Below, in pieces: positions 49,570-64,000 of a DNA stretch of 64,000 bases. Within the stretch, counting starts at the first letter, position 1, and each line of letters starts with the position of its first letter. The stretch lies in NCBI RefSeq assembly GCF_003611605.1, contig NZ_RAVX01000011.1:4811-68810 (forward strand), in the 5' to 3' direction. The notes beneath the pieces were generated by a model. It made no database searches, was not told the origin of the DNA, and was given only the letters and a program-made list of their open reading frames with translations. The DNA comes from Corallococcus sp. AB011P (GTDB lineage: Bacteria > Myxococcota > Myxococcia > Myxococcales > Myxococcaceae). The translations under genes were made by a program, and so were the position numbers.

Positions 49570-50115
49570 TTAGAAAACGGGCAGCACGGGCGCGTCCTTC
49601 AGCCGGGGCGCGCGCTGATCCTTCGGCGAAAGCAGGGGCTCCTTCACGGGCCAGGGAATGGCCAGGTCCGGATCATCCCAGACGACACTCCGCTCGGACT
49701 CCGGGGAGTACAGCGCGGTGCACTTGTAGAAGAAGTCCGCCGAGTCGCTCACCACGCAGAACCCGTGCGCGAAGCCCGGGGGCACCCAGAGCTGGTGCTT
49801 GTTCTCGCCCGTCAGCTCCGCGGCCACCCAGCGGCCGAACGTGGGCGACCCCTTGCGGATGTCCACCGCCACGTCCCACACCGCGCCCGCCAGGCACTGC
49901 ACCAGCTTGCCCTGCGCGTTCGGCTCCTGGAAGTGCAGCCCTCGCAGCGTGCCCTTCACCGAGCGCGACAGGTTGTCCTGCACGAACGGGCCGACCACCC
50001 CCACGTCCGCGTAGCGCTTCGCGTGGAAGGACTCGAGGAAGAAGCCCCGGTCGTCGCCGAACACCTTCGGCTCGATGAGCAGGACGTCCGGAATCTCCAG
50101 CGGGGTGACCTTCAC
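49570..50115 (-). CDS. rfbC: dTDP-4-dehydrorhamnose 3,5-epimerase
   Basis: GTG 50115 ([26 protein letters not shown]) overlaps the rfbA stop (GTGA); 182 aa versus E. coli RmlC 185 aa. Confidence 0.8.
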
Positions 50116-50993
50116 GACACCGCCCCCCGCTTCTCCAGCAGGTCCAGCAGGTACTGGCCGTACTCGTTCTTGCGCATGGGCTCCGCCAGCGCCGTCAGCC
50201 GCTGCTCGTCGATGTAGCCCATGCGGAAGGCGATCTCCTCCGGACAGGCCACCTTGAGGCCCTGACGGCGCTCGATGATCTCGATGTAGTTGGAGGCCTG
50301 CATCAGCGACTCGTGCGTGCCGGTGTCCAGCCACGCGTAGCCGCGTCCCATCAGCTCCACGTTGAGCTGGCCGCGGCGCAGGTACTCCGCGTTGACGTCG
50401 GTGATCTCGTACTCGCCGCGCTTGCCCGGCTTGAGGTTCGCCGCGATGTCGATGACCTGGTTGTCGTAGAAGTACAGGCCGGTGACGGCGTAGTGCGACT
50501 TGGGCTTCGCCGGCTTCTCCTCGATGCTGACGGCCTTGTGCTGGGCGTTGAGCTCCACCACGCCGTAGCGCTCCGGATCCTTCACGTAGTAGCCGAACAC
50601 CGTGGCGCCCTGCGTGCGCTTCGACGCGCGCTGGGTGAGCTCCCCCATGCCGTGGCCGTAGAAGATGTTGTCACCCAGGATGAGCGACACGGGGTCCTTG
50701 CCCACGAAGTCCCGGCCGATGACGAACGCCTGCGCCAGTCCCTCCGGGCGCGGCTGCTCGGCGTACTGGAAGCGCACGCCCCACTGCTCTCCGTCGCCCA
50801 ACAGCTCGCGGAAGCGCGGCAGGTCCTGCGGCGTGGAGATGATGAGGATCTCCCGGATGCCCGCCAGCATCAGCGTCGTCAGCGGGTAGTAGATCATCGG
50901 CTTGTCGTAGACGGGCAACAGCTGCTTGCTCACCACGCGCGTCAGCGGGTACAGGCGCGTGCCCGACCCCCCGGCCAGAACGATTCCCTTCAT
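50112..50993 (-). CDS. rfbA: Glucose-1-phosphate thymidylyltransferase
   Basis: ATG 50993: [18 protein letters not shown]... Confidence 0.9.
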
Positions 50994-51065
50994 GCGTTCT
51001 CCCCTGTGTTCCACGGCCCGGCCGCGAAACGGATGCGCGCGGCCCTGCCGCCACGCGCTCGATGC

Positions 51066-51965
51066 TCACCCGGCGCGGTGCGCCTTCCAGGCCGCGTGGA
51101 AGCGCGCCAGCGACTCCGCCAGCTCCAGCGGCTGGGCCTTCAGCTCCGTGCGCACCTTGTCCGTCTTGAGGCCGCTGCGCAGCGGACGGGGGCTGGCCAG
51201 CTTCAGGTCCGCCATCCGCGTGGGCGTAATCAGCGACGCGTCGAAGCCGAACACCTCGCAGAGCGCCCGTCCGAAGCCCACCCGGTCGATGACCGTGCCG
51301 CCGCAGGTGTTCCACACCCCGCCGAGCCGGCGCTCACCCAGCTCCACCAGCATGGCGGCCACGCTGTCCGCGAAGCTGGGGGACACCACCTGGTCCTCGA
51401 AGAGCTTCACCGGCTGGCCCTTCTCCAGCGCCCCCACCAGCCAGGCCCCGAAGTTGGGACGCCCCGCCGCGGGCCAGCCATACACCACCGCCGTGCGCGC
51501 GATGGCACAGCCCGGCGCGAAGACGCGCGCCGCCTGCTCCGCCATGTGCTTCGTCAGCGCGTACACGCCGCGGGGGTTGGGCAGCGCGTCCTCGGAGTAC
51601 GGCCCCGCGTCCCCGTCGAAGACGTAGTCCGTGGAGACGTGCACCAGGTGCGCGCCCGCGAGCTTCGCCGCCCGGGCCACCGCCGCCGTGGCGTGGACGT
51701 TCGCCGCGTAGGCCGCGTCCGGGTCCTTCTCACACGCGTCCACCTCCGTCATGGAGGCGGGGTGGATGATGGCCTCCGGACGGGCCTGGGCGATGGCGGC
51801 GGCCACGTCCTGCTCGCGCGTGAGGTCCACCTCCACGTAGCCGTGCGTGCCGCCCGTGCGCCGGGGACCGCGCCCCAGGCCCACGACTTCATGTCCGCGC
51901 TCGGTCAGCTGCGCGCAGACGCGGCTGCCCACCAGACCGTTGGCCCCCGTGACGAGAAAGCGCAT
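51066..51965 (-). CDS. rfbD: dTDP-4-dehydrorhamnose reductase
   Basis: MRFLVTGANGLVGSRV...; 4 nt after the rfbB stop. Confidence 0.85.
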   Translation of the reverse strand: MRFLVTGANGLVGSRVCAQLTERGHEVVGLGRGPRRTGGTHGYVEVDLTREQDVAAAIAQARPEAIIHPASMTEVDACEKDPDAAYAANVHATAAVARAAKLAGAHLVHVSTDYVFDGDAGPYSEDALPNPRGVYALTKHMAEQAARVFAPGCAIARTAVVYGWPAAGRPNFGAWLVGALEKGQPVKLFEDQVVSPSFADSVAAMLVELGERRLGGVWNTCGGTVIDRVGFGRALCEVFGFDASLITPTRMADLKLASPRPLRSGLKTDKVRTELKAQPLELAESLARFHAAWKAHRAG

Positions 51966-61800: not shown

Positions 61801-62507
61801 TGCAGCAGGAGCGTCAGGCGCCCGCCCAGCGTGGCGAAGGCCTGCCGCAGGTGTTCGCGCTCCGCGTCGCGGGTGCTCGTCAGGGCCACCATCCCTTCCG
61901 GCTGCTCCGGGCCCACGGCGAGCACGCCCAGACCGAAGCCGTGCTCGAACTCGAAGGAGGGATGCAGGCCCCGGATTTCCTCCCACAGCCGCCAGACGCC
62001 GAAGTTGCGCTCGCGCACCTGGGTGTCGTGGAAGAGGATGACGCCGCGCGCGCTCATCTTGGGGCGCCAGCGCTCGAAGTCCGCCTTCACTTGCTCGTAT
62101 TCGTGGCAACCATCGATGTGGAGCAGGTCGACGGAGCCATCCGCGAACTGGCTCAGGGCCTCATCGAAGGTCATCGGGTGCAGCTGGGAGAACCGGCTGT
62201 AGAGCGGGTCATGGTGCGCGCGCAGGTCCGCGAGCACCTCCGTCCCGTAGAAGCCCGCGTGCGCGTCACCCTTCCAGGTGTCCACCGCGTGGCAGCGCGT
62301 CTCCAGCTTCAGCGCGTCCACCGCCTGGCAGAACGCGGAGTAGGACACGCCGGTGTGCGTGCCCAGCTCCACCAGTGTCGAGGGACGCAGCAGGTCCACC
62401 AGGAACATCGCGAACGGGACGTGCTCCACCCAGGCGGAGGAGGCCAGCAGCCGCAGGGGCTGCGTAAGGCAGAGGGGGTGTTCCAGGGGATTGAGCTGTG
62501 GATGCAT
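58890..62507 (-). CDS. Tri-modular polysaccharide synthase: N-terminal class I methyltransferase (TylF/CmcI-like), about 150-aa coiled coil, then two GT4 glycosyltransferase domains
   Basis: ATG 62507 ([11 protein letters not shown]...). MT: [25 protein letters not shown]...[18 protein letters not shown]. Coiled coil: [55 protein letters not shown]... Two GT4-like domains. The opposite-strand ORFs are shadows. Confidence 0.7.
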
Positions 62508-62658
62508 GTTCGTGGCGTCCGGAAGGCCGACCCTCGCCGCAGGCAAGGCACGCCCCCCTCTCCTTGACGGATGTCTTCCATGTCATCCCCCTCCGGGGAG
62601 CGTCAAGGCTGGCAGGCCGCCCGGTCCTCATGGAAGGAGGCGCGTTCGCTGTTCTTTT

Positions 62659-64000
62659 CTACGGTGTCTGGACGAAGTCGAGGCGCGGATGGCCGGAGGC
62701 ATCGGTCCGTCCCGCGCGGACCCACGCATCACGCAGCCGGTCGGCGTCGTGGAAAGCCGAGGGTGCGCCAACCCGCGAGCGGGTGCGCACGAGTCGCGCG
62801 TGGGGTGCGTAGAGGACGCGCAGCCCGGCTTCGCCCGCGCGCAGACACAGGTCCACGCCCCGCGCCTCGTCGGACGTGAAGGCCGCGTCCCAACCTCCGA
62901 GCGACTCCAGGACCTCGCGGCGGATCATCGCGCAGGCGCTGGAGACGGCGAGTACGTCGCGCGGCCAATGCGAGCCTCCGAACGCGCCGAGCGTGGGATC
63001 GAACAGCCCCGCGAAGGGGCGCAGCACCCGACCCTCGGGGTCGAAGCGCAAGCCGGCCTCCAGCACCTGCCCCGCGGTAGAAACGATGCGCGCGCCCACC
63101 ACGCCGACACCGGGACGCGAGGCCTGCGACGCGAGCTCCATCAGCCAGCCCGGTCCGGTCGGGAGCGTACCGGCCTCCAGGACGAGGATGAGCTCGCCCC
63201 GGGCCTCGCGCAGCAGCCGGTTCGCCACGGCGCCCGGGGTCGCGGCCGCGTCCACCTGGACGTGGATGGTGTCGCCGGTGAAGGAAGCGTCTGGGGACGA
63301 AACAGGGACGCGGACCTCCACGTCCAAGCCGTCCGTGAAGGCGAGGAGCGCCGCGAGTTCGGCCTCGGTGGGCGCTTCCGGCAGCAGCACGGACACCCGG
63401 GGGCGGCCCACGAGCGGGTGGCGGATCCGGTACAGCCCTGGCGCGACCGTCTCCGCCGAGCCGCCCTCCCCCATGCGCGCCAGGTGCTCCGCCACGGCCC
63501 TGCGGCCCGCTTCGGAGGCCGCGGGCTTCGCGCTGGCGTCCGTGGCCGTGGAGCCGGGCAGCGTCCGCCAGTGGTACAGCACGCGGGGGATGTGCTCGAA
63601 GCGCCGCGTGCGCTCCATCAGGCGCAGGAGCAGGTCGTGGTCCTGCGCGCCCTCGAAGCCCGGGCGGATGCCGCCCACCTCACGCAGCAGCGATGCACGC
63701 ACCACGAGGAAGTGGCACACGTAGTTCACCGCGCGCAGCAGCTCCGGGGACAGCGCGGGCTTCAGGTAGGGCGCGAAGCGCAGCCCCCGCGCGTCCACCT
63801 TGTCCTCGTCCGAGTAGACGACGTCCGCGTCCGGCGCTTCACCCAGCCGCAGCGCGACCTCGGCCAACGCGTGCGGCGCCAGCAGGTCGTCGTGGTCGAG
63901 GAAGCCCACGTACTCCCCGGTGGCCAGGGCCAGCGCGGCGTTGGTCGCGAGGGCGATGCCCTGGTTCGACTCCAGCCGCGCGAAGCGGATCCGCGCGTCG
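62659..64000 (-). CDS. Two-domain glycosyltransferase family 2 protein, 5' end beyond window
   Basis: Reverse translation through 64000 reads ...NQGIALATNAALALATGEYVGFLDHDDLLAPHALAE... (GT2 DxD). A second GT2-like domain follows. No start is present within the window. Confidence 0.7.
   Translation of the reverse strand, partial: DARIRFARLESNQGIALATNAALALATGEYVGFLDHDDLLAPHALAEVALRLGEAPDADVVYSDEDKVDARGLRFAPYLKPALSPELLRAVNYVCHFLVVRASLLREVGGIRPGFEGAQDHDLLLRLMERTRRFEHIPRVLYHWRTLPGSTATDASAKPAASEAGRRAVAEHLARMGEGGSAETVAPGLYRIRHPLVGRPRVSVLLPEAPTEAELAALLAFTDGLDVEVRVPVSSPDASFTGDTIHVQVDAAATPGAVANRLLREARGELILVLEAGTLPTGPGWLMELASQASRPGVGVVGARIVSTAGQVLEAGLRFDPEGRVLRPFAGLFDPTLGAFGGSHWPRDVLAVSSACAMIRREVLESLGGWDAAFTSDEARGVDLCLRAGEAGLRVLYAPHARLVRTRSRVGAPSAFHDADRLRDAWVRAGRTDASGHPRLDFVQTP

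Follow-up and report, generated by a model that had tools for sequence, protein, structure and literature searches.

The window considered here is a stretch of 64,000 nucleotides from Corallococcus sp. AB011P (contig NZ_RAVX01000011.1), and its right-hand end, from position 49570 to 64000, is best explained as the serotype-specific two-thirds of the Corallococcus lipopolysaccharide (LPS) O-antigen locus. It is very probable that this is a rhamnose-linked O-antigen locus of the kind that depends on a transporter of the ATP-binding cassette (ABC) type. Among its genes is one for a protein of 1205 amino acids (aa) in which an N-terminal O-methyltransferase domain, a long coiled coil and two C-terminal glycosyltransferase (GT) modules are joined in a single polypeptide. 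This enzyme probably builds a sugar chain, gauges its length against a rigid rod of helix and closes it with a methyl cap. The complete mechanism, with the capping and the ruler role included, is regarded as reasonably likely in the light of the observed gene content, domain architecture, predicted folds, coiled-coil signature and synteny with Myxococcus.

The 1205-aa protein and its coiled coil

At the sequence level, the 1205-aa protein is 100% identical to a protein of Corallococcus sp. AB045. The start annotated at NCBI is a TTG codon at 62546 (1218 aa) with the Shine-Dalgarno-like sequence AAGGAGAGG upstream of it; the ATG at 62507 (1205 aa) lacks such a sequence, yet it agrees with the start of close homologues. 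Since sequence searches of the PDB with the whole protein, with its methyltransferase domain and with a profile of the DUF2142 membrane protein described below returned weak GT4 matches or none, fold searches were employed. The AlphaFold2 (AF2) model, built with 33 homologues and covering residues 6-1205 (full-length numbering is used throughout), has a mean predicted local distance difference test score (pLDDT) of 83.6. It consists of a Rossmann methyltransferase domain up to residue ~210, an uninterrupted helix from 214 to 325, a linker up to ~430 formed by three short helices and a disordered Pro-rich stretch, and two GT-B modules at 431-776 and 788-1185. Pfam places Methyltransf_24 at residues 46-162 (E 3e-25 / 1e-26), a VELGTxxG motif is present, and the fold of this domain matches cation-dependent family-3 O-methyltransferases; its structural neighbours include ManT and the sugar O-methyltransferase MeT1, both of the mycobacterial methylmannose-polysaccharide pathway. 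A first-pass annotation, made from the bare sequence, had called this domain a TylF/CmcI-like O-methyltransferase. The O-methyltransferase fold holds, whereas the family is Methyltransf_24 and the kinship with CmcI is remote (RMNT_CmcI, Rhamnosyl O-methyltransferase/CmcI, E 0.11, below threshold). Neither Pfam nor the AF2 model places a kinase domain in the protein, the helix starting at 214, directly after the methyltransferase.

Both C-terminal modules fold like retaining GT4 enzymes, and GT4 is also the family of the polymerase WbdA. The second is canonical, with Glyco_transf_4 and Glycos_transf_1 at 801-1160 and an E-x7-E motif (E1097...E1105) that is invariant in the alignment. The first is divergent, in that its Pfam match (627-770) covers the C-terminal half only, and its alternation of helices and strands in the AF2 model is Rossmann-like and consistent with GT-B. 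The earlier description of two GT4 domains is thus right as to the GT-B, GT4-like fold of both and has to be qualified for the family assignment of the first. Past the coiled coil there is a short motif, GSLAWKxxNRYW in myxobacteria and S(T/S)SWR(I/V)TAPLR in the proteobacterial homologues, which reduces to S-x-x-W with an invariant Ser and a nearly invariant Trp and is followed by basic helices and the Pro-rich linker. Binding to a membrane or to a partner is possible for this region.

Regarding the coiled coil, the continuous helix spans 112 residues and is followed by three shorter helices, so that the ~150 aa initially ascribed to it proved too many. Its hydrophobic residues recur with a period of 3.5 residues (power 51.9 vs 9.7 +/- 9.4 in shuffles, p ~0.004), no periodicity is seen at 3.6 residues within the helix, and no other locus protein scanned, the standalone methyltransferase included, has a comparable heptad segment. 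The length of the helix was measured in 33 homologues as the distance from the invariant Gly that ends the methyltransferase domain to the invariant Ser past the helix. This anchor distance takes the values 99, 106, 113, 120, 127 or 162 (99+7n) in 16 of the 33 homologues; a second phase class comprises 89, 117, 152, 159 and 180, and the overall range is 53-180 residues. Corallococcus and Pyxidicoccus homologues show distances of 99, 106, 113 and 120, and one homologue bears a direct 7-residue duplication, ELARQRD. Taken together, the length variation and the duplication look like the signature of a coiled coil that is free to vary in heptad steps. The segment first proposed as a coiled coil is, in sum, a long helix with both heptad periodicity and heptad-step lengths, and at ~1.5 A per residue its 112 residues would span an estimated ~160 A.

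Full-length homologues with the same architecture are present in Corallococcus, Pyxidicoccus, Cystobacter and Archangium, and homologues with ~40% identity over 97% of the length are known from Paraburkholderia, Caballeronia, Rhodopila and numerous metagenomes, some of the distant ones being annotated 'O-antigen biosynthesis protein'. In Caballeronia insecticola the homologue (~41% identity) has rmlBACD and a wzm gene on its flanks. On a metagenomic contig the homologue (~41%) is followed by a Methyltransf_23 gene and then by a gene for a methyltransferase/RgpF/WbsX protein. A very large uncharacterised family shares the N-terminal module of methyltransferase plus coiled coil, with 10,209 cluster representatives at E <= 1e-3, of which 3,543 remain at E <= 1e-30. 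Because the proteins that bear it range from ~320 to ~1,780 aa, the module seems to occur both standalone and fused to varied sets of GTs. It may be, although the idea is tentative and somewhat more doubtful than not, that no methyl-cap 'ruler' terminator is more widespread in bacteria than Methyltransf_24 plus coiled coil, whether standalone or fused to GT4 or GT2 polymerases, and that its heptad-step lengths set O-antigen modal lengths. If true, the family would offer a ready-made allelic series for the ruler model outside Enterobacteriaceae, and O-antigen length would be tied to myxobacterial gliding, development and outer-membrane exchange.

Transporter genes, synteny with Myxococcus and gene content of the locus

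The right side of the locus runs past the window end. A contig of Corallococcus sp. AB045, 99.4% identical to window 48889-64000, carries beyond that end, in this order, genes for a 704-aa double GT2, a 473-aa protein with sub-threshold similarity to GT2 only, a 283-aa GT2, Wzt and Wzm, and after wzm genes for a CDP-alcohol phosphatidyltransferase, a TPR/AIM24 protein and an SLT-domain protein. The last gene of the window is the 3' two-thirds of the double-GT2 gene, which is complete at 7774-9888 of the AB045 contig. There, wzm (PF01061 ABC2_membrane) and wzt (PF00005 ABC_tran) are located 3.9-6.0 kb past the window end, and the Wzt protein (gene 3887-5197) has a C-terminal carbohydrate-binding domain, Wzt_C (PF14524), at residues 291-412 (E 4e-13). 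Within the 23.6 kb of locus made up by the window and the AB045 contig, the domains of the encoded proteins include no Wzx, Wzy or Wzz, there are no OPX/PCP export genes, and neither WaaL nor an initiating phosphoglycosyltransferase is encoded. The complete Corallococcus genome CP114039.1 has the same gene order, save for the absence of three genes, those of the GT2/DUF2304/DUF2142 triad treated below. In C. praedator, C. terminator and one Myxococcaceae metagenome-assembled genome (MAG), an additional gene of ~760 aa separates the double GT2 from the big gene (at 15759-18047 in one of the three), a further cassette variation within the genus.

A search of genome contigs with Wzt retrieved Corallococcus, Pyxidicoccus and Archangium loci, M. 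xanthus not being among them; the Myxococcus locus was found through the list of Wzt homologues and then the contig that encodes one of these. The Myxococcus Wzt is 61% identical overall to that of Corallococcus, and its gene sits behind a matching flank (SLT, TPR/AIM24, CDP-OH transferase, wzm, wzt) and is followed by genes for a 1275-aa multi-GT protein, a 684-aa methyltransferase and a 780-aa GT2. This gene order equals that published for MXAN_4623-4619 (Wzm, Wzt, WbgA, SgmR, WbgB), which a preprint presents as the locus for O antigen (bioRxiv 10.64898/2026.08.28.747804, citing Perez-Burgos et al. 2019). Loss of Wzm/Wzt is stated to block O-antigen synthesis in M. xanthus (PMC7484181), and two sources place the priming enzyme and the ligase of this species elsewhere in the genome (bioRxiv 10.64898/2026.08.28.747804; PMC7484181; both citing Perez-Burgos 2019).

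Because flank and wzm-wzt are shared, the Corallococcus locus appears to be the positional counterpart of the Myxococcus O-antigen locus, with the enzyme cassette replaced by a rhamnose-linked one. Chromosomal position, flanking genes and orthologous wzm/wzt are the same in the two, whereas the enzyme cassette differs entirely: in Myxococcus the methyltransferase SgmR is separate from the GT protein WbgA, and no rml genes are found within 10 kb on either side of wzt. A scan of SgmR and WbgA revealed no long heptad segment in either, and a WbdD-like role for SgmR was rejected on this account. Between the two Wzt proteins (Myxococcus gene at 10001-11314) identity is 78% in the nucleotide-binding domain and only 34% in the carbohydrate-binding domain, an unequal divergence that would fit a serotype-specific reading of the chain end, for which E. 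coli O9a is the precedent (PMC3482155). Ligation to lipid A-core has this positional orthology as its single line of support, no waaL being present in the locus. In general terms, the comparison shows that Myxococcaceae keep wzm-wzt and the flank fixed and swap the whole glycosyltransferase/terminator cassette, an optional side-chain module included, and such cassette swapping would explain at the genetic level why serotypes are diverse among these social predators. The transporter genes, the Wzt_C domain and the Myxococcus synteny all bear out the likeness to ABC-transporter-dependent O-antigen systems that the first-pass annotation had noted in the layout of the window genes.

Within the window, which has a GC (guanine plus cytosine) content of ~70%, third-position GC indicates one clear gene per stretch, and it is high in all genes of 49570-64000, which were therefore taken as real. 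Pfam and third-position GC agree on the genes listed at the outset (rfbBDAC, named rml here, the GT4, the methyltransferase, the triad and the 1205-aa protein) and on their coordinates (Table 1). The GTGA at 50112-50115, in which the rmlC GTG start overlaps the rmlA stop, and the 4-nt spacing of rmlD and rmlB at 51966-51969 likewise read as described. The dTDP-L-rhamnose (dTDP, deoxythymidine diphosphate) pathway is represented by all four Rml enzymes, each with a Pfam E of 1e-62 or better.

The 548-aa GT4, a candidate adaptor or extra backbone GT, has a C-terminal extension of ~180 aa and adjoins the rml genes also in CP114039.1 and in an Archangiaceae MAG. Its stop is overlapped by 11 nt by the 171-aa open reading frame (ORF), which has a Pro-rich C-terminal tail and is kept beside the GT4 gene in the same two genomes (89% and 56%, respectively). 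Two standalone methyltransferases had been counted initially, and only one is present in the window: the 171-aa ORF, tried as the second, was rejected because Pfam and NCBIfam scans reveal no domain in it. The remaining methyltransferase carries a Cys4 motif at its N-terminus, and the homologues of the big protein in CP114039.1 and in one metagenomic contig, too, have a Methyltransf_23 gene in their company. To the left of rmlC lies a gene for a BrkB-family membrane protein (48363-49547). Since the genes beyond it are unrelated (HxlR regulator, GST, beta-lactamase-fold protein and Ser/Thr kinase), the left boundary of the locus is at ~49.5 kb. A scan for promoters and terminators across the locus did no better than on shuffled sequence.

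Table 1. Genes of the polysaccharide locus in the window and segments of the 1205-aa protein (window coordinates; SAM, S-adenosylmethionine)
Feature	Position	Strand	Evidence or remark
rmlC, dTDP-4-dehydrorhamnose 3,5-epimerase, 181 aa	49570-50115	-	PF00908 dTDP_sugar_isom, E 5e-73
rmlA, glucose-1-phosphate thymidylyltransferase, 293 aa	50112-50993	-	PF00483 NTP_transferase, E 9e-77
rmlD, dTDP-4-dehydrorhamnose reductase, 299 aa	51066-51965	-	PF04321 RmlD_sub_bind, E 1e-62
rmlB, dTDP-glucose 4,6-dehydratase, 341 aa	51970-52995	-	PF16363, E 4e-86; PF01370, E 3e-71
GT4-type glycosyltransferase, 548 aa	53110-54756	+	PF00534 Glycos_transf_1, E 2e-21
Conserved ORF of unknown function, 171 aa	54746-55261	+	no Pfam/NCBIfam match
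Standalone SAM-dependent methyltransferase, 303 aa	55327-56238	+	PF13489 Methyltransf_23, E 1.5e-11
Predicted GT2 polyprenyl-phosphate sugar synthase, GacI/PpgS/GtrB-like, 232 aa	56299-56997	+	PF00535, E 8e-19
DUF2304 small membrane partner, GacJ/Rv3632-like, 138 aa	56997-57413	+	PF10066, E 3e-24
DUF2142 polytopic membrane protein, predicted GT-C, 465 aa	57440-58837	+	PF09913, E 4e-70
Methyltransferase / coiled-coil / double GT-B protein, 1205 aa	58890-62507	-	Pfam, AF2 model, fold searches
O-methyltransferase domain, aa 1-210	61878-62507	-	Methyltransf_24
Coiled-coil segment, aa 214-325	61533-61868	-	single AF2 helix, 3.5-residue periodicity
S-x-x-W motif, three short basic helices, Pro-rich linker, aa 326-430	61218-61532	-	
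GT-B module 1, divergent, aa 431-776	60180-61217	-	PF13692, PF13524, PF00534 on C-terminal half
GT-B module 2, canonical GT4, aa 788-1185	58953-60146	-	E-x7-E motif
Double-GT2 glycosyltransferase, 3' part	62659-64000	-	PF00535 + PF13641; truncated by window end

Three genes on the plus strand form the GT2/DUF2304/DUF2142 triad, in which the GT2 stop and the DUF2304 start overlap by 1 nt. The best NCBIfam models for the GT2 are PpgS, AglJ and a dolichyl-P hexose transferase, none of which reaches its (equivalog) cut-off. To the DUF2304 family belong GacJ and Rv3632, small subunits in the membrane by which GacI and PpgS, respectively, are stimulated (bioRxiv 10.1101/180810). The AF2 model of the DUF2142 protein has a pLDDT of 94.4, and its Foldseek neighbours are nearly all GT-C enzymes (ALG12, STT3, ArnT, ALG9, Pmt4, AftB, AftD, PglB), with E 7e-4 for ALG12 and TM-scores of 0.35-0.49 for the top matches; D44 and E45, just past the first transmembrane helix, are invariant in 49 homologues. 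Judged from these models, the triad fits three-component periplasmic addition of a side chain after polymerisation, a scheme also found with ABC-transporter-dependent O antigens (PMC11127046). With GacI/GacJ/GacL, PpgS/Rv3632 and GtrABC it shares a GT2 synthase, a DUF2304 activator and a GT-C enzyme for the decoration of a rhamnose-linked polymer after export. It differs from these systems in that its GT-C belongs to the uncharacterised DUF2142 family and in that the locus is devoid of a GtrA, Wzx or MATE gene.

The triad varies between strains. At its site CP114039.1 has instead a differently oriented gene for a 290-aa methyltransferase (13619-14548). Of the three triad genes, at least that for DUF2142 is found in C. 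coralloides KYC2213, and those for GT2 and DUF2304 are found in a Pyxidicoccus locus. Because of this variable presence, the triad appears to be an optional strain-level module, like seroconversion modules.

Away from the polysaccharide locus, the plus strand of the window contains a low-GC island at 35897-39923 (~60% vs ~70% for the window). It carries a PD-Lambda-1 anti-phage defence gene (DUF4041 + T5orf172; 35897-37456; PADLOC E 1.5e-150), a gene for a SIR2-like protein (37482-39239) and a 225-aa ORF without a match, and its appearance is that of a defence island gained by horizontal transfer. The notion that the low-GC stretch at 36-40 kb is an rRNA/tRNA island was rejected because Rfam and tRNA scans of the window are empty. 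An ABC-F type double-ATPase gene (ABC_tran + ABC_tran_Xtn; 33669-35729, plus strand), unrelated to the polysaccharide locus, adjoins a tRNA-guanine transglycosylase gene.

Proposed mechanism and its alternatives

From these features we infer every enzymatic activity, the nature of the cap, the role of the coiled coil as a ruler and LPS as the destination, which together make up the following mechanism. RmlABCD would supply dTDP-L-rhamnose, and the glycan would be assembled on undecaprenyl diphosphate at the cytoplasmic face by both GT-B modules together with the double GT2, the 283-aa GT2, the weakly GT2-like 473-aa protein and the 548-aa GT4. The 1205-aa protein would oligomerise via its ~112-residue coiled coil, which would hold the O-methyltransferase ~160 A away from the polymerising modules. 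When the non-reducing end of the chain reaches the methyltransferase, its O-methylation would stop extension and set the modal length. The capped end would then be read by the C-terminal domain of Wzt and the chain exported via Wzm/Wzt. On the periplasmic side, the DUF2142 GT-C would add a side-chain sugar from a polyprenyl-phosphate donor made by GT2/DUF2304, and a WaaL encoded elsewhere would ligate the product to lipid A-core.

Several points weigh against this mechanism. The transporter genes wzm and wzt lie outside the window, and their presence in this strain is deduced from the nearly identical AB045 contig. No gene of the locus encodes a domain of a flippase (GtrA, Wzx, MATE) for the polyprenyl-phosphate sugar; the flippase may be encoded elsewhere, or its role may be filled by another protein. 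The BrkB protein was considered for this task and rejected, as nothing ties it to the triad and its gene adjoins rmlC in a triad-less strain too. As for the 1205-aa protein, the distal half of the helix is of low confidence (pLDDT ~50) in the AF2 model, which is that of a monomer, and no membrane-anchoring segment is evident. WbdD and WbbB are absent from its sequence matches and from its best (top-60) fold matches, so the likeness to them is one of architecture only. The locus encodes a standalone methyltransferase besides the fused one, and either of them may cap the chain or methylate within it. Finally, GT4 enzymes are retaining and from dTDP-beta-L-Rha would produce beta-L-rhamnosides, an uncommon type of product; another sugar may for this reason be the substrate of the GT4 modules, and the GT2 modules may be the rhamnosyltransferases.

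Among the alternatives, the one that survives best is still unlikely. It retains the ABC-transporter O-antigen locus and assumes that the methyltransferase of the big protein acts within the repeat unit, that the coiled coil serves for oligomerisation or as a scaffold, and that termination, if any, is due to the standalone methyltransferase or to nothing. The co-conservation of two methyltransferases with the big protein in distant lineages is favourable to it, as one of the two may be a non-terminator, and so are the large methyltransferase SgmR of the Myxococcus counterpart locus and the structural proximity to ManT and MeT1; the M. xanthus O antigen is itself reported to be partly methylated in-chain. 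However, the standalone methyltransferase is devoid of a coiled coil, and heptad-quantised variation over 53-180 residues is more in keeping with a ruler that can be tuned than with a fixed scaffold. Moreover, an extended coiled coil marks the terminator-bearing protein in every characterised system (PMC11231755), and Wzt has a carbohydrate-binding module (CBM), which in E. coli O9a recognises the terminal modification (PMC3482155). Capping by the fused methyltransferase thus stays the preferred reading.

It is improbable that the GT-B modules are adaptors or single-addition enzymes, with the double GT2 and the other GT2s as polymerases and the big protein as a terminator-scaffold. This division of labour would be in line with Klebsiella O7 ORF6, the rhamnose polymerase modules of which are GT2 (PMC11231755), with the at least three further cytoplasmic GT2 modules in the locus and with the many non-polymerising enzymes within GT4. 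In the known single-polypeptide systems, on the other hand, the polymerase modules are carried behind the coiled coil, and WbdA, the O9a polymerase, has dual GT modules (PMC11231755); besides, the methyltransferase/coiled-coil/GT/GT architecture is kept across phyla at ~40% identity over 97% of the length. These observations argue for polymerisation by the GT-B modules themselves.

A non-LPS glycan (capsule-like, secreted or protein-linked), exported by Wzm/Wzt and not ligated to lipid A-core, is quite improbable. In its favour, the locus encodes neither WaaL nor an initiating phosphoglycosyltransferase, proteins are the target of glycosylation in WsaE-type systems (PMC2943079), and rhamnan loci that include DUF2142 and DUF2304 genes are a typical feature of wall polysaccharides in Gram-positive bacteria (PMC9746298; bioRxiv 10.1101/180810). 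Against it, the chromosomal position, wzm-wzt and flanks are those of the Myxococcus O-antigen locus, the M. xanthus priming enzyme and ligase are, by the sources cited above (bioRxiv 10.64898/2026.08.28.747804; PMC7484181), likewise encoded elsewhere, and OPX/PCP export genes are not present.

Comparison with known terminator, ruler and polymerase systems

The strategy proposed here has an extended coiled coil as its hallmark, at the distal end of which the terminator is always found (Kelly et al. 2024, PMC11231755). Polymerase modules are all fused in O12 WbbB, are represented by two GT2 rhamnosyl modules in O7 ORF6 and are lacking in O3/O9a WbdD (PMC11231755). The design is therefore already known from Klebsiella and E. 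coli; the mechanism put forward is the established one and no concept is changed by it. In particular, the fusion of terminator and polymerase, the novelty of which had been implied at first, has been published for WbbB (O12) and ORF6 (O7) (PMC11231755) and for WsaE (PMC2943079). By analogy with these systems, the 1205-aa protein would be one more permutation, in which two GT4-like modules are fused to a terminator that only methylates; functionally it would combine a WbdD of the O8 type with a polymerase of the WbdA type, built from unrelated sequence families. Its mechanism would work like the known ones; the protein itself appears to belong to neither the WbbB nor the WbdD sequence family.

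ORF6 of K. pneumoniae O7, which is likened here by its published description alone, has a methyltransferase-kinase terminator, a coiled coil and two dTDP-Rha GT modules (PMC11231755). Like ORF6, the 1205-aa protein is a single polypeptide in which a methyl-transferring terminator at the N-terminus is followed by an extended coiled coil and, towards the C-terminus, by two GT modules; both come from ABC-transporter-dependent, rml-linked loci in which more polymerase or adaptor GTs are encoded separately. Unlike ORF6, the 1205-aa protein has neither a kinase domain nor a CBM between methyltransferase and coiled coil, and its GT modules are GT-B/GT4-like, those of ORF6 being GT2. On account of the missing kinase domain and CBM, a plain O-methyl cap rather than a methyl-phosphate would be expected. 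WbbB of Klebsiella O12 and Raoultella (GT99 terminator, coiled coil, GT102 + GT103; PMC11231755) is similarly an all-in-one protein with the same N-to-C order of modules, and its coiled coil acts as a molecular ruler, the role proposed for that of the 1205-aa protein. It differs in its GT families and in its terminator, a glycosyltransferase that adds beta-Kdo (3-deoxy-D-manno-oct-2-ulosonic acid).

Like in the WbdD, WbdA and Wzt-CBM system of E. coli O8/O9a (PMC3482155), a coiled-coil-borne terminator would add a methyl-containing cap that is read by the C-terminal module of Wzt before export, and the polymerase has two GT modules; the WbdD of E. coli O8 is itself methyltransferase-only. In E. 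coli, however, terminator and polymerase are separate associating proteins, whereas they are fused in Corallococcus, and the methyltransferase of the 1205-aa protein, with no kinase beside it, falls in another class I subfamily than WbdD (Methyltransf_24, family-3 O-methyltransferase fold). WsaE of Geobacillus stearothermophilus, compared by domain order only, likewise has an N-terminal O-methyltransferase, in this case a 2-O-methyltransferase, followed by two GT domains, which are rhamnosyltransferases; it adds a 2-O-methyl cap to a rhamnan, and its locus has wzm/wzt and rmlABCD (PMC2943079, PMC9415975). The difference lies in its product, a surface-layer (S-layer) protein glycan, and in its host, a Gram-positive bacterium. 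To these published terminator/ruler/polymerase arrangements, the Corallococcus protein would add for glycobiology a methyl-only, GT4-fused example.

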